Assembly: GCA_964500415.1 (NCBI GenBank) | Contig: CAZCOB010000001.1 | Location: forward strand, 136,267-200,266 | Direction of reading: 5' to 3' | DNA: 64,000 bases | Source: an uncultured Dehalococcoidaceae bacterium | GTDB lineage: Bacteria > Chloroflexota > Dehalococcoidia > Dehalococcoidales > RBG-16-60-22 | Shown here: positions 21,343 to 38,083 of the stretch, one piece after another | Position numbering within the stretch: position 1 is the stretch's first letter | Layout: each line of letters begins with the position of its first letter | The notes under the pieces: model-generated | Databases searched by the model: none | What the model was told of the DNA's origin: nothing | Seen by the model: the letters and a program-made list of their open reading frames with translations, nothing else | Translations under genes and position numbers: made by a program

Positions 21343-21948
21343 TCATAAATACCCGAACTCCCAGAATACCGCCACCACGATAGCTACCGACAGGAGCCCG
21401 CCGGTAATTACCTGCGCCGGCGAGTGTTGCTTCAGACAGATTCTCGCCCAGGCAACCGGCGGCAGCAGCAGTATCGTCAAAGCTCCGCCAGGACCGAAGA
21501 CAATGGTTATAACGGTTACCGAAGCGGACATGAAGGCGGTATGCAGGCTTATCTTCCAGAAACGGTTTATCGCCATGTAGATGAGTATCGCCGCCAGGCC
21601 GGCGGTGAATGTAACCGATAGCAACTTCGGGGCGGAGAAATACCACATCACGCCGCAATCGATTGCTCCCAGGATGCTTGCCAGGACGTAGATTCTGTTT
21701 CGCTGGTGGCGGGGATTTACGAAAATGCCCTCCAGCTTTTTCCACCTTACCAGGGAGATAACGATTATGAAAATTGGTATCACACTGAGAAATATCGATA
21801 TTAACGCCCACTTAAGGGCTTCCGAAGCACTGGCGGTCGATTCCACCGCGAGAAGTATTATCACGGCGAAGCTTAGCAGGAAAGGGTTCAATATATTCGA
21901 GATGAGACCGGCCAGTTTTTCTCTCATTGTCAGCAAGGTTTTGTACAA
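21343..21948 (-). CDS. Polytopic membrane protein, PAP2-like phosphatase
   Basis: 201 aa, ~6 TM. SLHTA and RICLKQHSPAQVITG resemble PAP2 motifs 2/3 (SRx5Hx3D), with Gln where Asp is expected. Confidence 0.5.
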   Translation of the reverse strand: MYKTLLTMREKLAGLISNILNPFLLSFAVIILLAVESTASASEALKWALISIFLSVIPIFIIVISLVRWKKLEGIFVNPRHQRNRIYVLASILGAIDCGVMWYFSAPKLLSVTFTAGLAAILIYMAINRFWKISLHTAFMSASVTVITIVFGPGGALTILLLPPVAWARICLKQHSPAQVITGGLLSVAIVVAVFWEFGYL

Positions 21949-22003
21949 GTATAATAATCTATACTAACCTATTAACCTGTATATAGGCAAAAAACGGGGG
22001 TTA

Positions 22004-22651
22004 ATGAAAATGACTTTCCTCGTAAACGACGCAGATATCAGCGTAGAGACCATGCAGTTGGGCCCGTACGGTACCAACGCCTATATCGTTGCCTGTCAGC
22101 GGACGCGGGACAGTATGGTGGTGGATGCCCCGGCCGATGCGGATAGAATCATCGCAAGCCTGCAGGGTACCAATCCCGTATCTATACTGTTGACCCACGG
22201 ACACTCCGACCATACCGGCGCTCTGGCCGAATTGAGGTCGCGGTTAAAAGTGCCGGTGGCGGCTTATCATGCCGATTCCCGCTCGTTGGAGACGCCGCCG
22301 GAGATGGCCTTAATTGACGGCGATATCATATCGCTGGGGAAACTGAAAATAGAAGTTCTGCATACGCCGGGTCATACGGCGGGCAGCCTGTGTTTCAAAG
22401 TCGGCAAATACCTGCTTTCCGGCGATACGGTTTTTCCCGGCGGGCCCGGTAAGACATGGTCGCCGGATGATTTCAGGCAGATTGTGGATTCCATCACAAA
22501 GAAGATACTGCCACTGCCCGAAGATACCCTGATTTGCCCCGGACACGGCGAAGTGACCACCGTGAAAAAGGTTAAAGAAGAATACGCTGTATTTGCCACC
22601 CGCTCCCACAGTCCCAACCTCTGCGGCGATGTCCTCTGGCTTTCTCCCTAG
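22004..22651 (+). CDS. MBL-fold hydrolase (glyoxalase II-like)
   Basis: 215 aa. LLTHGHSDHTG, HTPGHTAG. Confidence 0.85.
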   Translation: MKMTFLVNDADISVETMQLGPYGTNAYIVACQRTRDSMVVDAPADADRIIASLQGTNPVSILLTHGHSDHTGALAELRSRLKVPVAAYHADSRSLETPPEMALIDGDIISLGKLKIEVLHTPGHTAGSLCFKVGKYLLSGDTVFPGGPGKTWSPDDFRQIVDSITKKILPLPEDTLICPGHGEVTTVKKVKEEYAVFATRSHSPNLCGDVLWLSP

Positions 22652-23340
22652 TATCGCATCTCGATACGGTGGAAGGCTTCGGCCAGTTCGAATTCCTCGC
22701 CCTCGGCATTCATCATGGCCCAGTCACGCATTCGCGTACGCATTTCCGGAGGTATATCCCCTACCTGGCTTTTATGACATCCCAGGGCAGCCAGCTTGGT
22801 ATCGAAGGTGTCCGTAACATCCAGATGATAGTTGATATCGTCGGAACCCCAGAACCACATTTCCCTGACTTTATGGGGTTCGAGTCCTTCGTCGAGTAGC
22901 TCGGGATAGGAAAGGTGGTCTCTGGCGTACGGGAAAACGGCATCGAGGGTTACCAACCCGGTGATGCGGTGGTCGCGGTGCCACATGTACCTGCGATACG
23001 GGTCCGCCGTCACCACGGCGAACGGGCGGTACTGCCTTATAACACGCACAAGTCTTCTTCTGAACTCATCAGAATCTTCGAGGCCCTGGTCGGAGTAGCG
23101 CAGAAAAACGACGTCGCTGACGCCCAGTAGTTCGGCGGCAGCCAGCTGTTCCTGCTCGCGTATTTTTGCCAGTTCCTCCGGCTTCACATTCCTGTCGCTG
23201 GTACCCTTATCGCCGTTGGTGCAAACCACGTAAACCACCTTCTTCCCCTCCCGGGTAAGACGGGCGACCGTACCCGCCACGCCGAACTCGGCGTCGTCGG
23301 GGTGTGGCGTTACCACCAGTAAATAGGTCTCTTTATCCAT
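22648..23340 (-). CDS. PIG-L family N-acetylglucosaminyl deacetylase (MshB/BshB-like)
   Basis: VVTPHPDDAEFG and HRDH motifs. ATG 23340 (MDKETYLLVV) preferred over the track start 23406. Confidence 0.8.
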   Translation of the reverse strand: MDKETYLLVVTPHPDDAEFGVAGTVARLTREGKKVVYVVCTNGDKGTSDRNVKPEELAKIREQEQLAAAELLGVSDVVFLRYSDQGLEDSDEFRRRLVRVIRQYRPFAVVTADPYRRYMWHRDHRITGLVTLDAVFPYARDHLSYPELLDEGLEPHKVREMWFWGSDDINYHLDVTDTFDTKLAALGCHKSQVGDIPPEMRTRMRDWAMMNAEGEEFELAEAFHRIEMRY

Positions 23341-23442
23341 GCAAGTGTAAACTCCTTGATTAAGGGTGGACGTTATAATTGTATAACATTCATTGACTTG
23401 GTACAATTATAATGAATACAGCGAGAGGTCTTCGATTCGGCT

Positions 23443-24354
23443 ATGGCTGACCCCCCTTACAGTATCAGGAATTACCGTCCCGCCGATTTTAATTTTTTCG
23501 TCCTGCTGTACCGGGAAGCCGAGCGGCAGGAACCCATCGGCAGGCCGGCCACGCCTCAGTCCATCATGGAAAAGCTGTCCCATCCCGCATTTTCTCCCGA
23601 ACATGATTTATTCCTTGTCGAAAAGGCCGGCGAAATCATCGGCTTCATGGATATACTGCCGGAGCTGGATATTAAGCGGTTGATAGTCGACGCCTGGCTG
23701 CGGCCGGAGCACCGACGGAAAGGACTGGGTAGGAAGCTCCTGAAATTAGCCGTACGCCGCGCCGGTGAACTGGGTGCCGTTGTCCTCCACGTTAACGTTA
23801 GTGAAGATAATACCGTCGCCAAAAACGTGCTCTCCAGGCTGGGATTCGAGCGCGTCCGGCGCTACCTGAAATTGGGTCTGGACCTGAGCAACTCGTACAC
23901 GCGGGAATTAAGCAACGCTTATGGCGAATGCCGCCACCTGCGCGAAGGCGAGGAGGCAATACTGACACAGGTACAGAAACGCAGTTTCGCCGGGCAATGG
24001 GGCTACAATCCCGATACCGTAGCGACGATTGCCTATCGCATCGGCCTGAGCCACCGCTCCCCGGGGGATACCGTCCTGGCCTGCGAAGAAGACGAGGTTA
24101 TCGGCTATTGCTGGACGGAGGTAACCTCCGGCGGAGATGGCCGGATATATATGATTGGTTCCGACCCTGACCATCGCGGTCGGGGCATCGGCAGAAAATT
24201 ACTGCTGGCCGGACTGGCCCACCTTAAAAACGTGGGTGTAAAAGACGTCTGGCTAACGGTAGATGACGGGAACAAGGCAGCCCTTTCTCTTTACGAATCG
24301 ACCGGATTCAGGTTGCTTGAGAGTTACCTCTGGTACGAAAAATCGGTTGTTTAG
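23443..24354 (+). CDS. Two-domain GNAT N-acetyltransferase (MshD-like architecture)
   Basis: 303 aa. Two acetyl-CoA motifs, HRRKGLGRKLL and HRGRGIGRKLL, one in each half. Confidence 0.75.
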   Translation: MADPPYSIRNYRPADFNFFVLLYREAERQEPIGRPATPQSIMEKLSHPAFSPEHDLFLVEKAGEIIGFMDILPELDIKRLIVDAWLRPEHRRKGLGRKLLKLAVRRAGELGAVVLHVNVSEDNTVAKNVLSRLGFERVRRYLKLGLDLSNSYTRELSNAYGECRHLREGEEAILTQVQKRSFAGQWGYNPDTVATIAYRIGLSHRSPGDTVLACEEDEVIGYCWTEVTSGGDGRIYMIGSDPDHRGRGIGRKLLLAGLAHLKNVGVKDVWLTVDDGNKAALSLYESTGFRLLESYLWYEKSVV

Positions 24355-25583
24355 GCCACCGGCGCCGCGCTTCTGTCCAGTACCCGGCGCAGTTCCCCGA
24401 TTATCCCCCCGGATATATTCGTCCAGCTGTACGCACTTACTGATTCTCTGGTAGCGAGCGCTAACGCCATATCCCGCGGGGGCTTTGATAAAATCGAGGT
24501 TATCTTTTCGGCGAGGTTCCGGGGCGCATTATCGGCAATGATGTATCCTGTTTCGCCCTGTCTGATAATATTCCTGAGGTCGCCGACATCCGTGGCTACC
24601 ACGGGCGTGCCGCAGGCTAAAGACTCCAGGGATACCAGGCCGAAGCTCTCATAATAAGAGGGCACCACGCAGACATCGGCGGCGCTGTAGAAATCCGGCA
24701 GATGCTCCTGCTTCACCATGCCCTGAAATGTAACTCTGTCCCGTATTTTCAATTCCGCAGCCAGTTTCAGTAATCTGTCTATTTCACTCCGGCTGTACTC
24801 GTCGCCGCCGATTATCACCAGTCTCAGGCTCTTAAAGTTATCCAGGTACGGCACGGCCTTCAAAAGCTGGTCAACTCCCTTCAGCGGGTCAATCCTGCCG
24901 ACAAACAAGAGGACTTTTTCATCGGTAAATCCCAGCTTTTGCCTGGCGATTATTCTCTCTAGAGGCTGAAACATCTCCATGTTGACGCCGCAGGGCACGA
25001 TGCCGACTTTCTCCGGGTCGCCTCCGTAGTGTCGTATCAACTCTTCCTTTTCCCGCTCCGTGGCAACGATAATTCTCTGACAATCATCGACGGCTTCCCT
25101 TTCCGTGACGATGCGGAGTTCCGGAGCATCCTCGCCGATGCCGATGGCGTTTTTCACGGCGCCCAGCGTGTGAAACATGATAACATGCGGCACCTGCCAC
25201 CACTGTTGCAGGTATTTACCCACCCACCCGGAAAGCCAGTAGTGACTGAAGATAATATCATACCGGAGTCCGTTGTCTTTTCGGTAATTCTCCAGTTTGC
25301 AGGTAAATTCGGGCAGGCAGGAATACACCGCCAGTTTGTGTATCTTCTTTTCCTCCCCCGCCTTGAGGTGAACAAGCCGCGCCCGCTGACCCAGGTCATA
25401 AATCTGGGAGTCGGCGGGGTCATGAGTGCGGGTATAGACATCCACATAATGTCCCTGTTTCCCCAGTTCGTAGGCCAGTTCCCGGATATATACGCTCATG
25501 CCGCCGGTATCCCTGGCCCCTAGGTCGCCTACCGGGCAGCTATGGGCGCTCAACATGGCAATGCGCAATTTTCTCTCGTCCAT
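24351..25583 (-). CDS. GT4 family retaining glycosyltransferase (MshA / sucrose-phosphate-synthase-like N-terminus)
   Basis: 410 aa. AMLSAHSCPVGDLGARDTGGMSVYIRELA, and C-terminal ESFGLVSLESLACGTPVV (E-x7-E). Confidence 0.85.
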   Translation of the reverse strand: MDERKLRIAMLSAHSCPVGDLGARDTGGMSVYIRELAYELGKQGHYVDVYTRTHDPADSQIYDLGQRARLVHLKAGEEKKIHKLAVYSCLPEFTCKLENYRKDNGLRYDIIFSHYWLSGWVGKYLQQWWQVPHVIMFHTLGAVKNAIGIGEDAPELRIVTEREAVDDCQRIIVATEREKEELIRHYGGDPEKVGIVPCGVNMEMFQPLERIIARQKLGFTDEKVLLFVGRIDPLKGVDQLLKAVPYLDNFKSLRLVIIGGDEYSRSEIDRLLKLAAELKIRDRVTFQGMVKQEHLPDFYSAADVCVVPSYYESFGLVSLESLACGTPVVATDVGDLRNIIRQGETGYIIADNAPRNLAEKITSILSKPPRDMALALATRESVSAYSWTNISGGIIGELRRVLDRSAAPVA

Positions 25584-25605
25584 CAGTGTTCCGGCGTTTC
25601 CCCCG

Positions 25606-26586
25606 TTATGCTATGGTTATCTGGCATCGATACAGAGGTACCTCCTGACCACCCAGGCGATATTTATACGTTTCCGCACCTTTAAGAAAGTCCCATTTCT
25701 TCTTACCCTTTTCAATACTCTCTTTAAGACAGAGAACTTTACATAGCAACCCCACGCTTAAGTAATTAAAACGCGGGTCATAAGCGCTATTATATAAGAA
25801 ATGTGTATTTTTATAATCAAAGCCTATGGTCATAGCGGCTGGCTGGTTGTCCAGCTTGATAATTCCGAACCTCAGCAGCCCGATATCTCCCATCGTTTTG
25901 GCAAAATACTTAAAAAATGACTTCATCTGCGGAGTCATAAAATTAGCTTTCTCTTCCCGGCTCCTCGGAAAGAGATTAAAGAACATATCTAAAAAATCGT
26001 CAACTTCCTGCCCGCTCTCAATACAGCGGTGTTCTACATTGCCCGCCTCTCCTAAACGCCTCAACTTGCGCTTAACTTCGTGTCGCTGCTTGGTATTTAA
26101 TGTTGCTAAATATTCGTCCCAGGAAGGCGGTAAGTCCACTTCAAGAGAGATATCCTCCTGTGTATTTAGGACTTTATAACCCCTTTCAGTCGCTATATTT
26201 ATCAGGCTCGTAAGCACGGTTGAATCGGGGCGTACGTGCTTCAGGTCCAGCGATTTTACGTTATTCTCTCTCAAATCATCCAGCAGGATGCCGAAGAAAT
26301 CGTCCTCCCTGCCGGACACCACCACGAAGTCCTGATAGTCGCAGACATCAGTATTGCCGATGAAAAAGGCTGTTTCCCCCCTGACCATCAGCGGAGCGAC
26401 GCCGATTATTTTCTCTCCCTGCCGTACCGTGCGTATGGAGAGTTCGTTACCGGAACCGAATATTTGCCACCAGACCTGCAACCATGCCGGTAAAACGAAA
26501 ACGGAAGACCAGTTGAGAGCTTGCCTTGAGTCGTTCCAGTATGAGTTTAGTTTATCCAGGTTATCATCGCTGACGATATAACTCAT
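25606..26586 (-). CDS. FemAB/CelD-like GNAT-fold protein (BioF2-like acetyltransferase family)
   Basis: 326 aa. C-terminal half (FNLF...LYNSAYDP...YLSVG...W..FDFLKGAE.YKYRLG) matches my memory of the Acetyltransf_6/CelD family. Confidence 0.6.
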   Translation of the reverse strand: MSYIVSDDNLDKLNSYWNDSRQALNWSSVFVLPAWLQVWWQIFGSGNELSIRTVRQGEKIIGVAPLMVRGETAFFIGNTDVCDYQDFVVVSGREDDFFGILLDDLRENNVKSLDLKHVRPDSTVLTSLINIATERGYKVLNTQEDISLEVDLPPSWDEYLATLNTKQRHEVKRKLRRLGEAGNVEHRCIESGQEVDDFLDMFFNLFPRSREEKANFMTPQMKSFFKYFAKTMGDIGLLRFGIIKLDNQPAAMTIGFDYKNTHFLYNSAYDPRFNYLSVGLLCKVLCLKESIEKGKKKWDFLKGAETYKYRLGGQEVPLYRCQITIA

Positions 26587-26753: not shown

Positions 26754-27065
26754 ATGGCCAAGCAGATTATTCTTTATAATCTGGCGGAACACGTCACCGA
26801 TGAGCAGTACAAGGACTATGTCGTTAATGAAAAGGGGCCGCTGCTGGACAGCCTGCCGGGGGTTAAAAAGTTTGAAATGGTGAGGATAACGGGCTCGATG
26901 AAGGGTGAGATACCCTATAAATACGTCGGCATCCTGCATGTGGAAGATATGGAGAAATTTGCCAAAGAAGCTATGCCGTCAAAGAAATTCCAGGACTTCG
27001 GCGCCAAGTGGAGCACCATGGTGCAACCGGACTTCCAGACCCTGACGGGCGAAGAAATATATTAA
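26754..27065 (+). CDS. Small alpha+beta (EthD/Dabb-like) hypothetical protein
   Basis: 103 aa. RBS AGAGGTAG upstream; the fold assignment is a guess from the sequence pattern. Confidence 0.5.
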   Translation: MAKQIILYNLAEHVTDEQYKDYVVNEKGPLLDSLPGVKKFEMVRITGSMKGEIPYKYVGILHVEDMEKFAKEAMPSKKFQDFGAKWSTMVQPDFQTLTGEEIY

Positions 27066-27155: not shown

Positions 27156-28376
27156 ATGAATTTAGAGCATTTATTAACCGACGAGGACCGCCAGATTCGG
27201 GAAGCGGTAAGGGACTTCACCAGGAAAGAGATAATCCCTAATGCCAAGAAACTGGAAACGGACTATAAATATGTGGAAGAAGTCCATCAAAAACTTGTTG
27301 ACATGGGGATCCAGGCAGCGGGGTATCCTGCCGAATACGGTGGTGGTGATGGGTCCAGCATCGCACTCGGTATCATTTGCGAGGAACTGGCTAAAGGCGA
27401 CGGTGGGATAAGCCTTTCGACAGGTATCAACTGGGGCCTGATTCTGAAGCCGGCGGTAGTAGCCGGGAACAAGACCGTCATGGACAGGTTCATCCCGACC
27501 TTCTGTAGCGGGAAGCTGGCGTATGCCTGCCTTTCCATGACCGATGAAGCCGGGGGTGCTGATTCCGAGAATCCATTACTGCAGGGTGCCGGTATAAAAA
27601 CGACGGCCAGGCTGGAGGGTGATGAATACGTAATAAACGGGGCCAAGTCGTGGCCGACTCATGGCGGTATCGCGGAATGTTATTTAACGATATGTACCAC
27701 CGACACCACTGCGGGGGACGACGGAGTCGCTCTGATATATATTCCCAGGGATACCCCGGGGCTTTCGTTCGGAAAACCTGAAAAGAAGATGCTGTTCAGA
27801 ACATCGATAAATGGGTCGGTGTATTATGATAACGTTCGGGTGCCCAAGGAATACCGGCTCGCCGATCCCGGCACGGATGCTCACTTTTACCATTTCATCT
27901 CCGCAGGAACCGGTTGGCATTCGGCAACCATGGCTCTGGGAATTGCCGAACGTGCTTTTGAAATAGTGCTTGAGTATACCGGCACCCGCATGGGTGGATT
28001 TAAACCGGTCAGACAGCACAGCATGGTAGCCGGGATAATTGCCGATATGGCTATCGGTATCGACATGATGAAGGCAAGTATCTATAACCTGAGTTGTATG
28101 CTTGACCACCTTGACGTATACGGCCCGCCATGGACGCCAGAGTTTATCGCCAAAGCAACTACAACAAGAGTCTTCGCCGGAGACACGGCGGTGAAGATAA
28201 TTAACAAAGGCGCCGAGTTATTAGGTTCCATGGCTATCTCTGAGGACTTCCCTTATGAAAAATGCCTCAGGGATGTTAAGATAACGCAACTCTGGCTGGG
28301 CGGTCAGCAAATCTCCCGATACCGCATTGCCCGGGGGTATTACGACCTGAAGAACTGGGCTCAGGAGAAGCCTTAG
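27156..28376 (+). CDS. Acyl-CoA dehydrogenase family protein
   Basis: 406 aa. ACAD N-, middle- and C-domain pattern (INGAKSWPT); C-terminal LWLGGQQI sits where YEGTxEI is expected. Confidence 0.8.
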   Translation: MNLEHLLTDEDRQIREAVRDFTRKEIIPNAKKLETDYKYVEEVHQKLVDMGIQAAGYPAEYGGGDGSSIALGIICEELAKGDGGISLSTGINWGLILKPAVVAGNKTVMDRFIPTFCSGKLAYACLSMTDEAGGADSENPLLQGAGIKTTARLEGDEYVINGAKSWPTHGGIAECYLTICTTDTTAGDDGVALIYIPRDTPGLSFGKPEKKMLFRTSINGSVYYDNVRVPKEYRLADPGTDAHFYHFISAGTGWHSATMALGIAERAFEIVLEYTGTRMGGFKPVRQHSMVAGIIADMAIGIDMMKASIYNLSCMLDHLDVYGPPWTPEFIAKATTTRVFAGDTAVKIINKGAELLGSMAISEDFPYEKCLRDVKITQLWLGGQQISRYRIARGYYDLKNWAQEKP

Positions 28377-28395
28377 TTTTCCCGGTCGCTTCAAC

Positions 28396-28713
28396 CTAGA
28401 TAAGCACGCCCTTTGACAGACTGGCAGTATGTACGTAGATCTCTATTCTGGGTTCGCCTTCGCAGATATCAAGAACGGTAGTTTTAAAGAGGTCTGATTT
28501 TCGATATGCTTCCCAATTCTCCTGCGTGTCGAATATCAACGTAGCACCCTGCCCATATGTTTTAGGGTTCATAATGAAGAGTTTCTCCTTCATTCCGGGA
28601 ATTTTCTTACAGACCTCAATCACCTGGGCAAGATGCTTCTTGACAGTTTCCGTATCAGCCAGCAGCTTCTTCACTTCGTCCTTCACTTCAAACGTACATA
28701 TTACGGCTAACAT
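28396..28713 (-). CDS. Small ABM/Dabb-like hypothetical protein
   Basis: 105 aa ORF, codon usage consistent with neighbours, 20 nt from the next gene. Confidence 0.45.
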   Translation of the reverse strand: MLAVICTFEVKDEVKKLLADTETVKKHLAQVIEVCKKIPGMKEKLFIMNPKTYGQGATLIFDTQENWEAYRKSDLFKTTVLDICEGEPRIEIYVHTASLSKGVLI

Positions 28714-28733
28714 TTTTGCCTCTCTTTTCGTTC

Positions 28734-29492
28734 CTAGGGATTTTCCATCGCCCGTGCCAGTTCGTCTATGTTAGCTTTCTCACGTATCAGGAACTTCTCC
28801 CTGCCCTCGGTGTATGACGGGAGAACCCATTTCATTTCCTTCAGGTTTTGGGTGATAATCGGAATCCAGTTATAAGGGATGGAAATCAGTACCCACCCTT
28901 CATCGAACACCTCTTTCGATTTCATACCGAAGGCCAGCCCGGTAACCGTAAAGTTCACCTTACCGCTCCGGTATGGATAATTGTAAACCCAGGCGCATCC
29001 CAGCACGCCCGTTGTCTTGGATTCCCTCAACACCCCGGTGGAATAGCACATCGCCCTCAGTATAATTTCCGCCTGGCTGGTGTCGGCTAAAATAATCAAG
29101 AGGTCCGGCTCGAATGCCAGTTTGTCTAATGTGGCGAAAGCGACATAGTTCACAGTACCCTTCGGCAGCAGGTTAAGGTATTGATAGAGGTTGCCGTTAG
29201 CCCGCGAATCCTGGAAAATCTCAAGTTTAATCCCCACCTCTCCCGCCTGGGCGAAGGCGGGTAAGTCCTCCATTCCCAGCAGTGCTTTCCCGAAGCAATT
29301 CTCATTCTCTCTCGCGAAGTAAAAGGGGGTTCCCCTCTCCTGGGCTTCTTTAAGCATTTCGCAGAAAGACAGGGTCTTATCAAGCTGCTCAATTCCTTCG
29401 GGTCTGGTGGGTAGGAACTTTACGCCTACGGGCTGCTTTTCAAAATTAAATTTACGGTACACGGACAGGTCTTGTTTTAATGGCATCATCAT
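28734..29492 (-). CDS. DUF169 family protein
   Basis: 252 aa. FCEMLKEAQERG..FY...EN.NCFG and the overall length fit DUF169 (COG2043) as I recall it. Confidence 0.65.
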   Translation of the reverse strand: MMMPLKQDLSVYRKFNFEKQPVGVKFLPTRPEGIEQLDKTLSFCEMLKEAQERGTPFYFARENENCFGKALLGMEDLPAFAQAGEVGIKLEIFQDSRANGNLYQYLNLLPKGTVNYVAFATLDKLAFEPDLLIILADTSQAEIILRAMCYSTGVLRESKTTGVLGCAWVYNYPYRSGKVNFTVTGLAFGMKSKEVFDEGWVLISIPYNWIPIITQNLKEMKWVLPSYTEGREKFLIREKANIDELARAMENP

Positions 29493-29510
29493 ATTACTCT
29501 CCTTACGATT

Positions 29511-31463
29511 TTATAATTTCTTACTCTTCGGGAGGAGGTGCTTGAGGTGAGGAAACTTGTCTGTGGCGTTGGGAAACGTAAGTGCCTGGGTGAAGGTATT
29601 ATTGAAGTCCGGCTCGACGGTCAGTTCCACATACTCTACCCGCCGCGCCATGAGGTCTGCCTCCTTCCTTTTATCTGTATTGAGGAGTGCCATGCGGGCG
29701 CCGTCGCCGGCGGCATTGCCGACCGCATAGACATTTTCCGGGGCGCAGTCGGGGAAAAGTCCGATAACCGCCGCCGACTCTTTGTCGATATAGCTCCCGA
29801 AAGCCCCGGCCAGAATGACTTTATCGATTTTATTAATACCGAGTCGATTCATCATAATCCTAGCGCCGGAATACATGGCGCCCTTGGCAAGCTGTATTGC
29901 CCTGATGTCTTTCTGACAGATGACGATGTCATTGCCGATGGAAGCTTCTTTAGCCCAGGCGATAACGAACTCGGGTTCGTTCCCGTTCTTGCGCAAGCGC
30001 GGTGATTTCATTCGGGTATTGAAACGCCCGCCCCTATCGATAATACCCGCCAGGAACATCTGGGCGGCTGCGTCGAATATTCCTGAGCCGCAGATACCCC
30101 TTGCGCTGATATGTTTGACCTCCGTATTCCATTTCTCGTTGCCGATTACTTTGAACTGTACATCTTTCGTCTCCGGGTCTATTTTCATTTTTTCGATGGC
30201 CCCGGGTGCGGCGCGCATACCGTGCTTTATCTCCGCGCCCTCGAAGGCGGGCCCGGTGGCGCATGATGAAGAAAGCAGCTTCTTCCGATTTCCCAGAATC
30301 AGTTCGCCGTTGGTGCCGATGTCTATAATCAGCAGCATTTCGTCCCGGTTATAGGGCTCTTCGGCGATGAGAACGCCGACATTATCGGCGCCGACAAATC
30401 CCGCTTCTATGGGCAGGACGTGGACGTAAGCGCCGGATGATATTTTTATTCCGAGGTCGCGGGCCTTGATATCCAGGGAGTGATGCAAACCCGGTACGAA
30501 AGGCGCCTTGCCGAGCTGCCGGGGGTCGATATTCAGAAATATGTGGTGCATGCAGGTATTCCCGACAATAGCCGTATCGGTTATATCCGAGCGCTTTATA
30601 CCTACCCTGGCCGCAGCTCGTCCGGCAATCTGGTTGATACATTTTATAATCGCCCGATTCATTCTTTTCAAGCCGTCTTTTTCCTTCACGGTGTAGCTGA
30701 TACGGGACATGACATCCTCGCCGTAAGCGACCTGCGGGTTCATCATGGCATCCGTGGCGAGTACCTCCCCGGTGGTCAAATCACAGAGATAACCTGCCAC
30801 GGTAGTGGTGCCGATATCCACGGCCAGGCCGTAGCCCTTAGAAGTCTGTCCCGGCTCTATATCGACGATTTCTTTTTTATTCCATATCGAGACGGTGACC
30901 TTCCATCTCCCCTCTCGTATCTTATTCTGCAAGTCCAGCATTATCGTATAATCGATGGCAAGGTCGCGCAGTTTGTACTTATTCTTAAGCGCTTCCTGGA
31001 GCCTCTCAAGGTCGCCGGTCGTATCGTGCAGGGTAGCCTTTTGCAACTCTATATAGTATTTCTTAACCGCCGGTTTGAGTTTGATGTCCCGAACAGTGGC
31101 CTCTTTGCGCACCACCTGCCGGCCCTTTCGGCTTTCCTCGGGGACGAAGACAACGATATCGCCGTGAACGTGCGTCTGGCATGCCATCCGGTAGTTATCA
31201 CGTAGCTGCTTCTTGCTCAAGAATTTCTTGTTGGCTTCGCCGGTGTTGGAAACAGATGATATTGTGGAATTTATGCCGTATTTGGCAAAGTATCCTTCCT
31301 CGATTCTCACCTTGCACTTGCCGCAGGCACCTTTGCCTCCGCAAACGCTCTCGATATCGGCGCCCAAAAGCCGGGATGCCTCCAGTATGGTGATGCCTTT
31401 GTTGACTTTGCCCCGCAACCCGGAGGGCTGGAATACGACTGTATAATTTTGGTTATTCATCAT
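29511..31463 (-). CDS. 2Fe-2S ferredoxin / ASKHA-ATPase fusion (RACE/AcsV-like, DUF4445)
   Basis: 650 aa. N-terminal plant-type ferredoxin (CGGKGACGKCKV...ACQT), then ASKHA phosphate motifs (LAVDIGTTT, IDIGTNGE). Confidence 0.8.
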   Translation of the reverse strand: MMNNQNYTVVFQPSGLRGKVNKGITILEASRLLGADIESVCGGKGACGKCKVRIEEGYFAKYGINSTISSVSNTGEANKKFLSKKQLRDNYRMACQTHVHGDIVVFVPEESRKGRQVVRKEATVRDIKLKPAVKKYYIELQKATLHDTTGDLERLQEALKNKYKLRDLAIDYTIMLDLQNKIREGRWKVTVSIWNKKEIVDIEPGQTSKGYGLAVDIGTTTVAGYLCDLTTGEVLATDAMMNPQVAYGEDVMSRISYTVKEKDGLKRMNRAIIKCINQIAGRAAARVGIKRSDITDTAIVGNTCMHHIFLNIDPRQLGKAPFVPGLHHSLDIKARDLGIKISSGAYVHVLPIEAGFVGADNVGVLIAEEPYNRDEMLLIIDIGTNGELILGNRKKLLSSSCATGPAFEGAEIKHGMRAAPGAIEKMKIDPETKDVQFKVIGNEKWNTEVKHISARGICGSGIFDAAAQMFLAGIIDRGGRFNTRMKSPRLRKNGNEPEFVIAWAKEASIGNDIVICQKDIRAIQLAKGAMYSGARIMMNRLGINKIDKVILAGAFGSYIDKESAAVIGLFPDCAPENVYAVGNAAGDGARMALLNTDKRKEADLMARRVEYVELTVEPDFNNTFTQALTFPNATDKFPHLKHLLPKSKKL

Positions 31464-31566
31464 TCACAATATAACATGTAGTGACATATTAATACAAAGC
31501 TGAAGAATACTTTGTAAAGATTAATGAAAAAGAAAAGTAAAAATGAAACGAGTCACAGGTGGAAAT

Positions 31567-32691
31567 TTAATATTGTGCTGCCAGCTTTTCCAGGTGATAA
31601 CCGACACCGCCGAAACTGAACTCGCTGGCTCTGGCTTTCTTGGTGTAAAAGTGGAGGATATGGTCTTCCGTGAAGCCGATGGCGCCGTGCACCTGGTGGG
31701 CCGAGTGCATAACGCGACGACAGGCCTGACTCACCCAGGCTTTGGCTATGGCGGCTTCCCTAGCCGCCGGTAATCCCTCGTTGATACGCCAGGCAGCCTG
31801 GTAGGTGGCGAATGTCGAGCCGTCGACATCGATGAGCATATCGGCGCAGCGGTGCTGTATGCTCTGGAAAGCCCCGATAGGATGACCGAAGGCAATTCTC
31901 TCTTTGGCATAGTCCAGCGTCATGTTCATGGCCTGCCGGGCCAGCCCGACCATCTCCGCGCACCTGGCGACACTGGCCTTTTGTAGTATCTTTTCAACGC
32001 ACGGCCAGCCCCTATCTACTCCTCCCAGAACACTGTCGGCGGAGACTTTGACATCATCGAAAATAACCTCAGCCTGTTTATCGCCGGAAATAGTGTTAAG
32101 AGGTTTACAATTTAAGCCGGGGGTATTTTTATCGACTATAAAAAGCGATATGCCTTTTTCAGAGCCGCCCTCTTCGGCGGTCCTGGCGACGCAAATCAGG
32201 TAATCGGCGGCGCCGGCATCCGTCACGAAGAGTTTGGTTCCGTTGATTATAAAGTCGCTCCCCTGCCGTGTCGCTTTTACCTGTACAGCCTCAGGAGTAT
32301 ATTTCCCCGATGCTTCCACTAAGGCCAGCGTCATGATGGACTTGCCTTCGGCGATGCCGGGTAAATATTTCTGTTTCTGCTCGCCGCTGCCGGCTTCGAT
32401 AATCGTCGAGGCCCCCAGCACGATATTGGAGAAAAACGGACTCAAAAAACAGGCGCTTCCCATCTCCTCCAGCACCACGATTAAGTCCAAGAAGTCGCCC
32501 ACGCCGCCGTACTCCTCCGGGATGGAAAGCCCGTGCAGGTTCATCTCCGCCATTTTCCGCCACAGTTCCGGCGTATAGCCCTTCTCATCGGCGGCCATCG
32601 CCCGCAGGACTTTATCGGAGTATTCATTGGCCAGGAAGTCCCTGGCCAGTGTCTGCATCATTTCCTGCTGCTCGTCGAGAGCAAAGTCCAC
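31567..32691 (-). CDS. Acyl-CoA dehydrogenase family protein (no Glu at the canonical YEGT position)
   Basis: 374 aa. ACAD pattern; C-terminus EFSFGGVGYHLEKLA. Confidence 0.8.
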   Translation of the reverse strand: MDFALDEQQEMMQTLARDFLANEYSDKVLRAMAADEKGYTPELWRKMAEMNLHGLSIPEEYGGVGDFLDLIVVLEEMGSACFLSPFFSNIVLGASTIIEAGSGEQKQKYLPGIAEGKSIMTLALVEASGKYTPEAVQVKATRQGSDFIINGTKLFVTDAGAADYLICVARTAEEGGSEKGISLFIVDKNTPGLNCKPLNTISGDKQAEVIFDDVKVSADSVLGGVDRGWPCVEKILQKASVARCAEMVGLARQAMNMTLDYAKERIAFGHPIGAFQSIQHRCADMLIDVDGSTFATYQAAWRINEGLPAAREAAIAKAWVSQACRRVMHSAHQVHGAIGFTEDHILHFYTKKARASEFSFGGVGYHLEKLAAQY

Positions 32692-32720
32692 TATTGTCCT
32701 CCGTGTAAATCTTTCCAGTA

Positions 32721-33899
32721 TCAGCGTAAACGTGGCAGGCCCAGTCCACGCTGGGCGATAACGTCCTTGTCTATCTCGGACGTGCCCTGTTCCATGCTGT
32801 GACCGAAGGAGCGCAGGTAGCAGGAGGGTATCCTGCCATACATGGGCGCCAGCTCCTCGTCCTCGCCAAGCTGGCTGTACTGTCCCGTCAGCTCCATGCC
32901 GAACTCGGTTACCCGCTGGAGAAGCTCGAAGCTGACCAACTTGCTCATAGCCGATTCAGCGTTGGGCACCATGCCCCGACTCTGCATCCAGGTGACGCGG
33001 TAATGATGCAGGCGGGCTATTTCGCATTCCGCCCGCAACTCGGCCAGACGATTTTCCATAACGGGGTCGAGTAAATCTTTTTTCCGCGCGTACTCCGCCA
33101 GGTCTGCTACCAGGGTTTCCGCTATAGCGTAAACCGGGTCGGTCGTGCGTTCGTAGTCCAGCAAAGACATGACCACGTAAAAGCCCTTATTCAGGCCGCC
33201 CACGATGTTTTCCCTGGGTATGCGCACGTCATCGAAGAAGACTTCATTGAAATCGTGGTGACCGGCCATATTGATGACGGGATTGACCGTTATCCCCGGC
33301 GTCTTCATGTCCAGCAGGAAAAACGTAATCCCGCGGTAGTTCGGGGTGGCCTCGCGGTCGGTCCTGGTTACCAGGGCATTCCAGTCGGCGAAATGACCGT
33401 TGGTCGTCCATATCTTCTGTCCATTGACGACGAAGCAGTCGTCTTCTTCTCTGGCGAATACCTCGATGGAAGCCAGGTCGGAGCCGTGTCCCGGCTCGCT
33501 GAGGGTCTCGCACCAGATGACTTTTCCGGAAGCTATGCCTGGCAGGTGTTTCTTTTTCTGCTCTTCGGTGCCTTTCAGCATAAGCGCCGGAGCCACGATG
33601 CCCGCGCCGATGGAGTCGTATCCCGGCGAGTGGTAGCGCGATAGCTCTTCCCTGAGAATAAGCCTGTGAAAAGGCGATTTTCCCTGGCCGCCGTATTCCT
33701 CAGGCCAGTGGATGGATATCCACCCCTTTTCTCCCAGCTTTTTCGCCATCTCCCGGTGGACTTTTATCCAGTCGGACTGGGCGGACATATCGAAGAAGGT
33801 CAGCCGCTTTTCCCGGTATTCCCGCGGTACTTCCTTTTCCAGGAAAGCGGCAACTTCCCTGCGGAAGGCCTCTTCTTCGGGAGTTAATCTAAAATCCAC
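32721..33899 (-). CDS. Acyl-CoA dehydrogenase family protein
   Basis: 392 aa. ACAD pattern (VNGQKIWTTN); C-terminal SMEQGTSEIDKDVIA retains the catalytic-base-like Glu. Confidence 0.85.
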   Translation of the reverse strand: MDFRLTPEEEAFRREVAAFLEKEVPREYREKRLTFFDMSAQSDWIKVHREMAKKLGEKGWISIHWPEEYGGQGKSPFHRLILREELSRYHSPGYDSIGAGIVAPALMLKGTEEQKKKHLPGIASGKVIWCETLSEPGHGSDLASIEVFAREEDDCFVVNGQKIWTTNGHFADWNALVTRTDREATPNYRGITFFLLDMKTPGITVNPVINMAGHHDFNEVFFDDVRIPRENIVGGLNKGFYVVMSLLDYERTTDPVYAIAETLVADLAEYARKKDLLDPVMENRLAELRAECEIARLHHYRVTWMQSRGMVPNAESAMSKLVSFELLQRVTEFGMELTGQYSQLGEDEELAPMYGRIPSCYLRSFGHSMEQGTSEIDKDVIAQRGLGLPRLR

Positions 33900-33911
33900 G
33901 ATATATATCTC

Positions 33912-35900
33912 TTACTTGCCGGTAAACTTGGGCGTGCGGCGGTAGTTCATGGATGTCAGTCCTTCGTTCAGGTCTTTTGTCATGGCGATATCGCCGGAGA
34001 CTGCCGCTTCGAGGTATAATGCCGTCCGCTGGTCGGCCTGGGCGCCGTAGTAAAGCAGTCCCTTGGCCAGCTTCTGGGCCAGGGGGGCGCCGTTGGCCAG
34101 TTTTACGGCCGTTTCATCCACCAGGTCATCGAACTTGTCCGGCTCGGCGACGAAGTTCACGATTCCCCAGTCGAGGGCTTTCTCGGCCATGACGGGGTCG
34201 GCCAGCAATATTATCTCTTTAGCACGCGCCCAGCCTATTAACCGCCCCAGACGCTGCGTGGCGCCTGCACCCGGCAAGAGTCCCAGGGTAATTTCAGGCA
34301 GACGCAGCTGTGCCCTGGTGTTCATAATCCTGATATCGCAGGCCAGGGCGAGCTCCAGTCCGCCGCCCATCGCCGCGCCGTTGATAGCGGCGATTACCGG
34401 CTTGGGGTAGGTCTCGATTCGGGTGAATACTTCGTGGGGGGCTTCGCTGAATTTGAAGGCGTCGTCCACCTGGCCGGTCGCGAACGCCGACACATCGGCG
34501 CCGCCGCAGAAATTGGCGCCAGCCCCGGTGATAATTATGCACCGCACGTTTTCGTCATTCTCAAGCTCGATGAGCGCTTTGTTTATCTCCGTCATGAAAT
34601 CGGCATTGAAAGCGTTGGCCCGGTTGGGCCGATTCAGTATTAACCTGGCGATTTTCTTTTCCCGGTTGATATCAAGCTTGACGAATTCATATTCCCCCGG
34701 CCCGTAGGTATAAAATCCCTCGCCGGTCTTCCGTCCCAGTTTCCCCTGTTTCACGAGTTTGGTTATGACGGAGGAGGCCTTGTACCTGTCTTCCTCATTG
34801 TACTTTTTATAAAGCCGATTCAACTCGTCAAGTATCTTATCCAGTCCGGTGCTATCGGCCATGCGGAGGATGCCGCGCGGGTAGTTCAGTCCCAGGAGCA
34901 CGGCGGTGTCTATCTCGTCGCGGGTGGTGGCATCCATTTCGATGAGCTTGGCGGCTTCGTTGACAGCCGTCGCCAGCACCCTGATGGGGTCGAAGTCCAC
35001 GCCGGCGTTCATGGGGATTTCGTTGGTCTTGCCTTCCGGCCAGTCGTAGTAGCCTTTACCGGTTTTTCTTCCGTAGTTACCGGCCTTGAACAATTTTTCC
35101 AGTATGGGAGCGGGACCGTAGCTCTTGCCCATTGTCTCGCCGAAGTATTCCATGACGTGAAACTGCGTATCGATAGAGCCACCACCGAGCGCGTCCTGTA
35201 GCTCCAGCATACCCATCGGCATCCCCAGCTTGTACTTAATCGCCGAATCTACTTCAAAGGCATTCTTGGCTTCACCCTGAGACAGCGCCCAGTCGGCCTC
35301 GTTAGACATGTTACAGAAGATTCGGTTGGCAACGAACCCCGGGACGTCCTTGACGTGAACGACTGCCCGTCCCATCTTGATAGCGACTTTCTCGGCTATA
35401 GCAATGGCTTCTTCGCTGGTGTTCTCGCCGTGGACGATTTCCAGCAGGGTCATGCGACTGGGCGGATTGAAATAGTGCGTGCCCACGACCATCTCCGGTC
35501 GTTTGCCGGCCGTGGACATCTCGGCGATGCTCAGCGACGACGTGTTGGTGGCGAAAACGCAGTCGGCCGGGCACAGTGCCGTAACCTCTTTCAGGACGCT
35601 CTTTTTCAGGTCCATTATCTCGGGCACCGCTTCGATGATGATATTGGCGTCCTTGACCGCCTCTTTAAGGTCCACGAGAAAGGTCATCCGGCTCATGGCG
35701 TCCTTCTTGGCTTCTTCCGTATAACGGCCCCGGCTGATTCTCCTGTCGTAGTTGCTTTCTATGAGCTGGCGTCCCTTTTCCAGGAATTTTTCCTCGATGT
35801 CCCGGATTTTTACGTCGTAACCGGCCTCGGCGGCCAGGGCGCCAATCTGAGCCCCCATAAGACCCGCTCCGAGCACGGTAACATTCTTAATCTCTTTCAT
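33912..35900 (-). CDS. Fused 3-hydroxyacyl-CoA dehydrogenase (N-terminal) / enoyl-CoA hydratase (C-terminal)
   Basis: 662 aa. VLGAGLMGAQIG Rossmann motif at the N-terminus; crotonase motifs (ITGAG.NFCGGADV, AAINGAAMGGGLELALACD) at the C-terminus. Confidence 0.85.
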   Translation of the reverse strand: MKEIKNVTVLGAGLMGAQIGALAAEAGYDVKIRDIEEKFLEKGRQLIESNYDRRISRGRYTEEAKKDAMSRMTFLVDLKEAVKDANIIIEAVPEIMDLKKSVLKEVTALCPADCVFATNTSSLSIAEMSTAGKRPEMVVGTHYFNPPSRMTLLEIVHGENTSEEAIAIAEKVAIKMGRAVVHVKDVPGFVANRIFCNMSNEADWALSQGEAKNAFEVDSAIKYKLGMPMGMLELQDALGGGSIDTQFHVMEYFGETMGKSYGPAPILEKLFKAGNYGRKTGKGYYDWPEGKTNEIPMNAGVDFDPIRVLATAVNEAAKLIEMDATTRDEIDTAVLLGLNYPRGILRMADSTGLDKILDELNRLYKKYNEEDRYKASSVITKLVKQGKLGRKTGEGFYTYGPGEYEFVKLDINREKKIARLILNRPNRANAFNADFMTEINKALIELENDENVRCIIITGAGANFCGGADVSAFATGQVDDAFKFSEAPHEVFTRIETYPKPVIAAINGAAMGGGLELALACDIRIMNTRAQLRLPEITLGLLPGAGATQRLGRLIGWARAKEIILLADPVMAEKALDWGIVNFVAEPDKFDDLVDETAVKLANGAPLAQKLAKGLLYYGAQADQRTALYLEAAVSGDIAMTKDLNEGLTSMNYRRTPKFTGK

Positions 35901-35956
35901 GACTTACAGCCCCTTTCCAGGTTATTCGCTCATGTTGAGCCTGTCGAACCATGAGG

Positions 35957-35985
35957 GCTCACCCTTCGACAAGCTCAGGGTGAGC
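35957..35985. repeat. Intergenic hairpin repeat (CCTTCGACAAGCTCAGGG family)
   Basis: GCTCACCC (35957-64) / GGGTGAGC (35978-85) around the loop TTCGACAAGCTCA; a diverged copy lies at 58701-58721. Confidence 0.55.
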
Positions 35986-36002
35986 GACATCAGATTTTTC
36001 CC

Positions 36003-36515
36003 TTATTTCACCGGCTCGAAGGCGTAGTAAACCCGGTCGCGTATCTTGGTCTCTCTCTTGACCTCAATCGGGTGGGAAGGTACATCAAAGACCACGAACT
36101 TGACCTCGTCTCCATCTTTGAGCTCGCCCTCTTTGCAGTTGATGATGCGTGCCAGCAGGTGCTTTAAAGGGGCCCCCTCGCCGAAGTTCAGCCAGGCCAT
36201 GATTATCGGGGGCGGGAAGCCGATGGGTGCGCCGGCCTGCGTCTCCGTGAACGTGACCACTTTGGCCCGCTGCGGCAGCTCTACCCACTCCAGCTCGTCG
36301 GACCAGCACTTGGGGCATATCACGCCGGGAGGAAAAGCTATGTTACCGCATTTTTTACACTTGGTCGTGGTAAATTTGCCGGCTTTCAGATTTTCGTAAA
36401 ACGGATGAATTCGATTGAACTCCTCGCATTCTAACGGCCACATATCCATTTCCGCTATATAGGTGCCGTCCAGGGCGGGCGTTCCGACTACATTTACTTT
36501 ATCTAAATCAGCCAT
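36003..36515 (-). CDS. DUF35 Zn-ribbon/OB-fold protein (thiolase partner)
   Basis: 170 aa. C-x2-C...C-x2-C (CKKCGNIAFPPGVICPKC); lies directly downstream of the SCP-x-type thiolase. Confidence 0.8.
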   Translation of the reverse strand: MADLDKVNVVGTPALDGTYIAEMDMWPLECEEFNRIHPFYENLKAGKFTTTKCKKCGNIAFPPGVICPKCWSDELEWVELPQRAKVVTFTETQAGAPIGFPPPIIMAWLNFGEGAPLKHLLARIINCKEGELKDGDEVKFVVFDVPSHPIEVKRETKIRDRVYYAFEPVK

Positions 36516-36548
36516 TTCTTCTCTCCTTATGTAAAACTGTCATGTACT

Positions 36549-38035: not shown

Positions 38036-38083
38036 TTTTATTGTCGATTGCTGTATTTTTCGTTTTTAGAAAGGAGATGACGC

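Follow-up and report, generated by a model that had tools for sequence, protein, structure and literature searches.

A conserved gene module of Dehalococcoidia with mycothiol-pathway logic and a Fem-type protein as candidate for the missing ligase

INTRODUCTION

Mycothiol and bacillithiol are cysteinyl-glucosamine (Cys-GlcN) thiols that serve large groups of bacteria as substitutes for glutathione. Both arise by the same logic, in which a family GT4 glycosyltransferase (MshA or BshA) is followed by a PIG-L deacetylase (MshB or BshB1/2) and by ATP-dependent addition of cysteine (MshC or BshC); the mycothiol pathway of Actinomycetota also includes a phosphatase step (MshA2) and an acetyltransferase (MshD), and its product is used by MST (Rv0443). 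We know of no gene assigned to the MshA2 step even in actinomycetes. In these bacteria the mshC genes are unlinked to mshA, and in Bacillus the operon mgsA-bshB1-bshA ties bacillithiol genes to methylglyoxal/glyoxalase functions. Here, we analyze a cluster of six genes in a 64,000-nucleotide stretch (hereafter, the window) of contig CAZCOB010000001.1 from an uncultured Dehalococcoidaceae bacterium (Chloroflexota), in which relatives of MshA, of the PIG-L deacetylases and of MshD accompany a FemAB-like protein, termed FEM below, that may take the place of the missing ligase.

To our knowledge, no Fem-type enzyme acts in cofactor biosynthesis. The described enzymes FemX, Orf11 and their kin combine two GNAT domains with a tRNA-binding helix and a catalytic lysine (K305 in FemX), and in the BD-12 pathway, Orf11 draws on Gly-tRNA to attach an aminoacyl group to the amine of streptothrisamine, an amino sugar (PMC12945691). 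The distribution of mycothiol is given as actinomycetes (PMC10950700), and in the literature searched we found no link between Dehalococcoidia or Chloroflexota and the biosynthesis of mycothiol or bacillithiol. According to a commentary (PMC6336425), unidentified thiols were seen decades ago in anaerobes that included Chloroflexus; the mention of “MshA” in a Borg preprint, considered as an earlier link, concerns archaeal elements.

RESULTS

Five of the six genes form a conserved module

All six open reading frames (ORFs) that the initial annotation had listed as adjacent genes were found in the window (Table 1), and the families and motifs ascribed to them stand: the motif DTGGMSVYIRELA occupies residues 25 to 37 of the MshA-like glycosyltransferase (GT4), and PHPDDAEFG occupies residues 34 to 42 of the PIG-L deacetylase. 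Their Pfam scores are 151.6 bits for GT4 (Glycos_transf_1), 122.3 bits for PIG-L (PF02585), 115.4 bits for a two-domain acetyltransferase, GNAT2 (two matches to Acetyltransf_1), 95.7 bits for FEM (Acetyltransf_6, PF13480) and 83.9 bits for a metallo-beta-lactamase-fold (MBL) hydrolase (Lactamase_B), with only the PAP2-like membrane protein falling short of its threshold (22.3 bits on PAP2, gathering score 27.2). The PIG-L start at 23340 is favored, as the resulting 230 residues equal the length of the protein in relatives. GNAT2 is antisense to GT4 and overlaps the 3′ end of that gene by 4 bp.

The initial observation that MshA-, deacetylase- and MshD-like genes occur here without a canonical ligase is upheld within the window: after reading all ORF translations and scanning the ambiguous ones against NCBIfam, we detected no MshC, BshC or Ino1 in its 64 kb, and the sole aminoacyl-tRNA synthetase encoded there is TyrS. 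Nor did family clustering reveal a recurrent ligase-like family in about 100 related loci, gathered from genomes and metagenomes, with flanks of up to 10 kb.

Linkage to GT4 was counted in the 55 of these loci with enough DNA, and linkage to the other genes in 34 metagenomic loci in which at least 3.4 kb of sequence follow FEM. In 52 of the 55, the next gene after FEM, in the same orientation, is GT4, with a median of 22 bp between the FEM stop and the GT4 start, a spacing that indicates co-transcription. PIG-L is linked in 34/34 loci, GNAT2 in 28/34, MBL in 27/34 and the PAP2-like gene in 5/34, and the commonest gene order, FEM>GT4><GNAT2 PIG-L><MBL, is that of the window. The grouping of five of the six genes is far beyond chance and defines a module, FEM-GT4-(GNAT2)-PIG-L-(MBL), to which the PAP2-like gene is peripheral. 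Where the initial description had a neighborhood, relatives have FEM-GT4(-PIG-L) as a compact operon on one strand, into which GNAT2 is inserted antisense in many loci.

Many of the loci share one synteny block containing FtsK, RNase J and acyl-CoA dehydrogenase (ACAD) genes, and the core of the module is also kept at four loci in unrelated surroundings (L001, L004, L016 and L018). At greater evolutionary distance, FEM and GT4 are adjacent in 3/3 loci of a clade, comprising SAR202 and megabase-scale Chloroflexota contigs, in which FEM is 34 to 41% identical to that of the window; the pair as a whole is retained in SAR202-type genomes at 35 to 44% identity, with GNAT2 nearby in 2/3 of these loci. 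The FEM-GT4 pairing is older than the linkage of either gene to PIG-L or GNAT2. Because the genes are linked in relatives, the reading cannot be refuted by a failure to co-occur, as the initial annotation had envisaged. GNAT2 is absent from L013 to L016 and from L018, and lineages lacking it at the locus may make a non-acetylated form of the product or encode the acetyltransferase elsewhere.

GT4 follows MshA at residues that discriminate it from SPS

The best NCBIfam match of GT4 is MshA (TIGR03449, 336.6 bits), followed by glgA_Coryne (139 bits), sucrose-phosphate synthase (SPS; 114 bits) and BshA (99 bits, cutoff 273.7), and its closest matches in the PDB are MshA of C. glutamicum (CgMshA, 249 bits) and TeSPS, also known as Tll1590 (243 bits). 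To calibrate the MshA model, we note that CgMshA scores 703 bits on it and that relatives of the window GT4 score 301 to 401 bits, with 401 bits for the deeper-branching, SAR202-type ortholog in L103. The proven SPS Tll1590 reaches 286 bits on the same model, for which reason the score is not diagnostic and was dropped as proof of MshA identity.

What speaks for the MshA type initially assigned to GT4 is thus not the profile score but the comparison of individual residues. The phosphate-binding residues K83, Y115, T139 and R157 and the catalytic H138 are kept in the window GT4 and in 15 relatives, the catalytic E312 is also kept, and the window GT4 and these relatives carry the MshA-type residue at seven of eight positions that discriminate MshA from SPS (D25, T26, M29, K83, T139, L234 and S313). 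In CgMshA, the acceptor phosphate/inositol is reportedly bound by K78, Y110, H133, T134, R154 and N25. Basic positions equivalent to those of GT4 hold the acceptor phosphate in the biochemically proven SPS Tll1590 (PMC7264703), so that the conserved site indicates a phosphorylated acceptor and not inositol specifically. On these sequence grounds, GT4 is probably an MshA-like enzyme acting on a phosphorylated small acceptor, for which inositol phosphate is our best guess, and the PIG-L deacetylase encoded next to it suggests GlcNAc as the donated sugar. We propose that GT4 is a UDP-GlcNAc:phospho-acceptor GlcNAc transferase with inositol-phosphate as its probable acceptor.

The predicted fold of FEM is closest to aminoacyl-tRNA-dependent transferases

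Neither the sequence of FEM nor its family profile yields a meaningful match in the PDB, and fold comparison was therefore the only route to its relatives. In Foldseek searches with an AlphaFold2 model built from 37 homologs (pLDDT 90.7, pTM 0.86), FemX of Weissella viridescens ranks first (TM score 0.62 to 0.67, E value about 1e-11), and TM scores are 0.57 to 0.60 (0.64 to 0.67 when normalized by target) for Sbb17/Sba18 and 0.55 to 0.58 for MprF/aminoacyl-PG synthases; acetyl-CoA-dependent tandem GNATs reach only 0.34 to 0.51. The Sbb17/Sba18 entries are described as “aminoacyl-tRNA-dependent peptide synthase” and were solved with the amino sugar streptothrisamine. Judged by its model, FEM is structurally closest to the aminoacyl-tRNA-dependent transferases.

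FEM belongs to a large family (464 clusters at 50% identity, E value of at most 1e-30), whose conserved residues were read from 120 sequences at 32 to 52% identity. A motif just before the last strand, G303-x-E305-x-Y307-K308, includes a lysine conserved in 100% of the sequences (K308) and three residues, Y307, E305 and G303, conserved in at least 95%; its aromatic-lysine pair Y307-K308 resembles, by position, F304-K305 of FemX. Between the two domains lies a basic helix, K166-x-R168-H169-E170-x-[KR]-R173-K174-x-R176-R177, in which R168-H169-E170-x-x-R173-K174-x-R176 are at least 95% conserved. The fold matches and these residues make FEM a credible candidate for acylating the amine freed by PIG-L, that is, for the step of MshC and BshC. 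The fold match also suggests aminoacyl-tRNA as the donor, from which cysteine would be the amino acid transferred. The initial annotation listed the FemAB-like gene and left it uninterpreted; its product is most plausibly the ligase that seems to be missing.

The remaining enzymes and the phosphatase step

The NCBIfam scores of PIG-L are highest on the bacillithiol deacetylases (BshB1, 101.1 bits, cutoff 182.5; BshB2, 92.0 bits, cutoff 195.25), followed by Mca (66.2 bits, cutoff 277.15) and MshB (52.3 bits, cutoff 224.35). Its H35-x-D37-D38 and H143-x-D145-H146 motifs for zinc binding and catalysis do not vary among 50 homologs, and we propose that the enzyme, as a GlcNAc-X deacetylase, sets the GlcN amine free. 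GNAT2 carries its two Acetyltransf_1 stretches as tandem GNAT domains within about 300 residues, as does MshD, which is also its best match both in NCBIfam (TIGR03448, 97.5 bits, residues 38 to 298 on profile positions 31 to 294 of 294) and in the PDB (Mycobacterium tuberculosis MshD, 2C27/1OZP, 43 bits over both domains). Its proposed function is N-acetylation of the added amino acid.

The MBL hydrolase matches GloB (TIGR03413) best, with 97.4 bits over profile positions 9 to 164 of 248 only, and this match stops short of the C-terminal substrate-binding domain of GloB. Its binuclear site (H65, H67, D69, H70, H124, D141 and H181) is invariant in 36 homologs, and the enzyme is proposed to be a thiol-ester hydrolase acting on conjugates of the module product. 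In three close relatives (L006, L011 and L017), a remnant for 45 to 89 residues is left of the gene while the other cluster genes are intact; some lineages can thus do without it and are losing it. Another short MBL protein of the glyoxalase-II-like type (107.8 bits on GloB) is encoded elsewhere in the window, beside an H+-pyrophosphatase gene, so that the cluster MBL is one of at least two copies in the genome. By translation reading, the window holds two paralogous membrane H+/Na+-translocating pyrophosphatases.

For the phosphatase step that would follow an MshA-type reaction, the PAP2-like protein had initially been suggested, and its linkage in 5/34 loci has led us to downgrade this candidate. 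Its catalytic residues S134, H136, R169 and H175 are invariant in 14 homologs, its motifs are degenerate (K70-x6-NP, S134-L-H136 and R169-x5-H175-x3-Q179 versus KxxxxxxRP, PSGH and SRxxxxxHxxxD), and the gene mostly travels in the shared FtsK/RNase J synteny block; a different, UppP-like PAP2 protein follows GT4 in L103. A better candidate is a CX5R dual-specificity/PTP-like phosphatase (HCHAGLGRTG) of 159 to 190 residues, whose gene immediately precedes FEM in the same orientation in eight loci of one subclade and which has weak Pfam matches to PTP-like phytase and a weak resemblance to inositol-phosphate phosphatases.

Hints of a thiol product and of inositol

Genes of the DinB superfamily/MST family flank the cluster in five loci, at varying positions and in varying orientations. 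Two of their products pass the equivalog cutoff of 170 bits for mycothiol S-transferase, MST_Rv0443 (NF047843), namely, those of L022 (185.1 bits) and L065 (182.4 bits), whereas that of L004 fails (83.6 bits). The L022 protein aligns over its full length with M. tuberculosis MST (8F5V; 123 bits, E = 1e-34) and keeps the metal/MSH motifs NS..W, WH and DD...H; the metal ligands of MST are unusual in consisting of two histidines and one aspartate (PMC10950700).

In both loci that lack GT4 (L023 and L074), a Gfo/Idh/MocA oxidoreductase gene lies upstream of FEM, which is directly followed by GNAT2, PIG-L and MBL. The oxidoreductase matches inositol 2-dehydrogenase IolG best (148 bits, cutoff 355), and it also lies ahead of FEM in L027, whose short contig does not extend to the GT4 position. 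These loci may represent a variant pathway or a case of GT4 relocation. As for the supply of an acceptor, Dehalococcoides mccartyi expresses abundant myo-inositol-1-phosphate synthase (PMC7918482), and inositol phosphate is thus available in the class Dehalococcoidia.

Variant loci and genomic surroundings

Several loci deviate individually from the common arrangement. L014 has FEM, GT4, MBL and the PAP2-like gene but lacks PIG-L between GT4 and MBL, the sole such case among loci with enough DNA, and in L018, GT4 is broken into two ORFs by a frameshift (possibly a pseudogene) or an assembly error. In L016, the two genes after PIG-L, which share its strand, encode a hemerythrin-domain protein and a small SAM-dependent methyltransferase; the latter, a single case, recalls NmbA, which N-methylates bacillithiol. 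In all three SAR202-type loci (L102 to L104), the end of folE, encoding GTP cyclohydrolase I, abuts or overlaps the start of FEM; in L102, a gene for a SufS-like class V aminotransferase comes directly after GT4, with a VOC/glyoxalase-fold gene nearby. STT3/AglB and other glycosyltransferases are encoded near the cluster in L004.

The remainder of the window encodes, by reading of the translations, housekeeping functions and acyl-CoA metabolism. A large acyl-CoA block adjoins the cluster and contains three acyl-CoA dehydrogenases, a DUF169 protein, a 650-residue ferredoxin/ASKHA reductive-activator-like protein, a hydroxyacyl-CoA dehydrogenase/enoyl-CoA hydratase fusion, an SDR protein, a thiolase-like protein together with a DUF35-type OB-fold protein, and a molybdopterin oxidoreductase and its 4Fe-4S subunit; of these labels, that of the thiolase alone has been confirmed in a profile scan, the others being readings of the translations. 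The block is syntenic with the cluster in many relatives and gone in others. Genes for two small proteins with a ferredoxin-like fold lie on either side of the first acyl-CoA dehydrogenase gene, one HapK/REDY-like (25.9 bits) and the other weakly YdhR-like, and both are syntenic in close relatives only. A tandem universal stress protein gene adjoins the cluster in the window and in four relatives.

Some recurrent neighbors were considered as module members and set aside. The 103-residue HapK/REDY-like gene and the ACAD genes beside FEM were ruled out because their synteny is limited to close relatives; radical-SAM and NfeD-like genes upstream of FEM (five to seven loci) reflect the synteny of one subclade and have no functional link; and a family of 103-residue reverse ORFs downstream of FEM is an artifact of GT4 genes truncated at contig ends.

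Table 1. Positions of the cluster genes in the window and of related or neighboring features in the window and in related loci
Feature	Location	Position	Strand	Length	Remarks
FEM	Window	25606-26586	-	326 aa	FemAB/Acetyltransf_6 double-GNAT protein; first gene of the operon
GT4	Window	24351-25583	-	410 aa	MshA-like retaining glycosyltransferase
GNAT2	Window	23443-24354	+	303 aa	Two-domain GNAT, MshD-like architecture
PIG-L	Window	22648-23406	-	230 aa	PIG-L family deacetylase; length from probable start ATG 23340
MBL	Window	22004-22651	+	215 aa	MBL-fold hydrolase, short glyoxalase-II-like type; accessory gene
PAP2-like	Window	21343-21948	-	201 aa	Integral membrane protein; peripheral, module membership doubtful
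Second MBL	Window	8244-8858	-	204 aa	Short glyoxalase-II-like type
MBL remnant	L006	6106-6240
MBL remnant	L011	12930-13184
MBL remnant	L017	13026-13160
DinB/MST family	L022	5123-5650
DinB/MST family	L065	10909-11436
DinB/MST family	L036	2264-2923
DinB/MST family	L063	981-1682
DinB/MST family	L004	7975-8484
CX5R phosphatase	L085, L086, L089, L095-L098, L100	840-1319			Position is that in L097, as an example
Gfo/Idh/MocA oxidoreductase	L023	2757-3755			Locus without GT4
Gfo/Idh/MocA oxidoreductase	L074	48-824			Locus without GT4
Gfo/Idh/MocA oxidoreductase	L027	531-1535			Short contig
folE	L102	9441-10004
folE	L103	9454-9999
folE	L104	9384-10004
Cluster without PIG-L	L014	6528-8472
GT4 in two ORFs	L018	9986-11208		84 + 326 aa
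PIG-L, hemerythrin-domain protein, methyltransferase	L016	5223-6371
Acyl-CoA metabolism block	Window	27156-40662
Ferredoxin-like-fold protein	Window	26754-27065	+	103-105 aa	Length given for both proteins
Ferredoxin-like-fold protein	Window	28396-28713	-	103-105 aa	Length given for both proteins
H+/Na+-translocating pyrophosphatase	Window	6032-8170	+
H+/Na+-translocating pyrophosphatase	Window	42005-44032	-

DISCUSSION

With a probability that we put at roughly 45%, the cluster encodes a pathway to a Cys-GlcN thiol of the mycothiol type, with a Fem-type transferase in place of MshC. The genes present, their linkage, the families and folds assigned to their products and the conserved residues lead us to infer the following route. 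GT4 would use UDP-GlcNAc to glycosylate a phosphorylated acceptor, of which 1L-myo-inositol-1-phosphate is the most likely, to give GlcNAc-inositol-phosphate (GlcNAc-Ins-P), from which the phosphate would be removed by the CX5R phosphatase in one subclade and possibly by the PAP2-like protein in the window. Deacetylation by PIG-L would then yield GlcN-Ins with its 2-amine exposed, and FEM would form the amide bond of Cys-GlcN-Ins by using an aminoacyl-tRNA (Cys is proposed), replacing the ATP-dependent MshC or BshC. Where GNAT2 is present, it would use acetyl-CoA to convert this compound to AcCys-GlcN-Ins, which is mycothiol or an analog thereof, and MBL, joined in some relatives by the MST-type DinB protein, would act on conjugates of the product. 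More specifically, a Fem-type, Cys-tRNA-dependent transferase might serve Dehalococcoidia, the abundant marine SAR202 and the subsurface lineages among them, in the synthesis of mycothiol itself or of a closely related Cys-GlcN-inositol compound; this narrower proposition is doubtful.

Several observations weigh against this interpretation. When the proteins were scored against the trusted cutoffs, as the initial annotation had advised, none passed a cutoff for MshA/B/D or BshA/B: GT4 stays below the MshA equivalog cutoff of 462.5 bits and GNAT2 below the MshD cutoff of 163.1, and PIG-L passes none for BshB, MshB or Mca; the MBL protein, likewise, is below the GloB cutoff of 200.8. The sequence of GT4 as a whole is as similar to SPS as to MshA, and the eighth of the discriminating positions is an exception, with S30 where MshA has N25. 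In a comparison of GNAT2 with 2C27, the Tyr294 position is conserved and the Glu234 position is occupied by Arg; Glu234, which we take to be the general base of MshD, presumably forms a catalytic pair with Tyr294. Pfam files the family of FEM as GNAT acetyltransferases (Acetyltransf_6), its score on FemAB_like (PF04339) is 24.5 bits, under the cutoff of 27, and its nearest NCBIfam match is BspF, a reported crotonyl transferase. With regard to tRNA dependence, FEM is only 11 to 15% identical to its structural matches, and the likeness of its Y307-K308 to FemX K305 is one of position; nothing in the sequence points to cysteine as the amino acid. PIG-L is absent within 10 kb of the FEM-GT4 pair in the SAR202-type loci L102 to L104. 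No MST homolog occurs in the window, and an MST-type gene stands beside the cluster in only 5 of the roughly 100 loci (about 5%).

The initial annotation had regarded a compatible-solute or cell envelope pathway as an equally valid reading; the MST equivalogs in relatives, the linked MBL gene and the phospho-acceptor site of GT4 now favor a thiol. A non-thiol product of the same scaffold would result if FEM added Gly, Ala, Ser or an acyl group to a GlcN-inositol-like glycoside serving as a compatible solute or signal. The known Fem-type enzymes, which use Gly-, Ala-, Ser-, Leu- and Lys-tRNA, with none known to use Cys-tRNA (PMC12945691), are in line with such a product, as are the lack of any specification of cysteine by the sequence, the presence in the GT4 clade of SPS, a compatible-solute enzyme, and the adjacent universal stress protein gene. 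Thiol chemistry is nonetheless suggested by the MST equivalogs and by the frequent linkage of a glyoxalase-II-like MBL gene, and an MshD-like N-acetyltransferase fits the logic of an acetylated cysteine, so that a non-thiol product appears unlikely. An envelope glycolipid or glycoconjugate, such as a GPI-like GlcN-phosphoinositide or an N-acylated glucosaminyl lipid, would cast GT4 as PIG-A-like, PIG-L as a GlcNAc-lipid deacetylase, FEM as an N-acyl- or aminoacyltransferase (compare MprF) and PAP2 as a lipid phosphatase. Although PIG-L is named for the GlcNAc-PI deacetylase, MprF-type lipid aminoacyltransferases are among the best structural matches of FEM, PAP2-type membrane phosphatases adjoin the cluster in the window and in L103, and L004 has its STT3/AglB and further glycosyltransferases, we regard this assignment as improbable: the Lys, Arg, Thr and Tyr of GT4 are those that in MshA and SPS, both enzymes of soluble substrates, bind a terminal phosphate monoester, the module has no conserved flippase, transporter or membrane domain, PAP2 linkage is weak, and MST and GloB-like partners do not fit.

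A canonical ligase encoded elsewhere in the genome would leave FEM with another step, such as the addition of an extra residue to the thiol or the salvage or recycling of GlcN-Ins. Our ligase survey covers the window and about 100 loci with their flanks, a scope that leaves room for this arrangement and counts against our interpretation; mshC of actinomycetes is likewise unlinked to mshA, and MST equivalogs would suit a genuine mycothiol made in the classical way. But FEM is the tightest partner of GT4, in a pair that predates the linkage to PIG-L and GNAT2, no ligase-like gene appears in the flanks of the loci, and mycothiol is described from actinomycetes (PMC10950700), with no link to Dehalococcoidia in our literature search; a ligase elsewhere is quite unlikely on these grounds. 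The notion that the genes are housekeeping neighbors assembled by chance through regional ancestry, with GT4 a sucrose-phosphate or glycogen-type synthase, draws on the FtsK/RNase J/ACAD synteny common to many loci and on a PDB match to TeSPS as good as that to MshA. It is largely refuted and has very little probability left, given that the core is kept in four unrelated contexts and at 35 to 44% identity, that the 22-bp spacing indicates co-transcription, that the discriminating residues of GT4 follow MshA, and that a deacetylase beside a glucose-transferring SPS would be without a substrate.

If the proposed thiol pathway is real, it would identify the redox cofactor of the globally abundant and mostly uncultured Dehalococcoidia, including SAR202 and organohalide-respiring relatives, and its product would be the first mycothiol-type thiol outside Actinomycetota. 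FEM would then bring Fem-type enzymes into cofactor biosynthesis for the first time and provide a third, independent way of ligating cysteine, one that relies on the translation machinery to make the cysteinyl-glucosamine amide; the large family of “CelD/BcsL-like GNAT” proteins would gain a function, and the CX5R phosphatase would become a candidate gene for the MshA2-type phosphatase step.

Among the systems with which the module can be compared, the short cyanobacterial SPS Tll1590 (PDB accession number 6KIH) shares with GT4 the GT4 subclade, the catalytic His and Glu, the Arg and Lys that bind UDP, and a pair of basic residues at the acceptor phosphate. It differs in that its Ala48 and Gln51 (which contact fructose), Arg253 and Pro332 are replaced in GT4 by the MshA-type Thr, Met, Leu and Ser, and the deacetylase and acyltransferases of the module make no sense with a glucose donor. 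The bacillithiol pathway resembles the module in its succession of GT4, PIG-L and cysteine addition, in the partial clustering of its genes, in the preference of the module PIG-L for the BshB1 and BshB2 models (101 and 92 bits) and in an association with methylglyoxal/glyoxalase functions. Unlike BshA, which uses L-malate, the module GT4 has a phosphate-binding acceptor site; BshC is missing from the module, and an MshD-like acetyltransferase is present, whereas the cysteine amine of bacillithiol is free.

With the Fem-type enzymes (FemX of W. viridescens, MprF/aaPGS, Orf11/Sba18/Sbb17, VlmA, PacB and DhpH/K), FEM shares the double-GNAT fold, as predicted, in about 330 residues; its basic interdomain helix and the aromatic-lysine pair near its C terminus are like theirs by position, and the aminoacylation of an amino-sugar amine by Orf11/Sba18 is the very reaction proposed for it; it departs from them in its 11 to 15% identity and in belonging to Acetyltransf_6 (CelD/BcsL-like) and not to FemAB. 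Compared with the mycothiol pathway, the module scores under the equivalog cutoffs, has a deacetylase that is BshB-sized and better matched to BshB, is clustered where the actinomycete msh genes are dispersed, resides in an anaerobic lineage of Chloroflexota, and contains no MshC, a Fem-type double-GNAT protein occupying the operon instead. What it shares with that pathway is a GT4 that matches MshA best and has a phospho-acceptor site, a PIG-L deacetylase, a two-domain GNAT that matches MshD best, a phosphatase step that is needed in both, and, in relatives, an MST-equivalog DinB protein. The module is conserved class-wide with the logic of the mycothiol pathway, and the ligase missing from it is most plausibly the FemAB-like protein.

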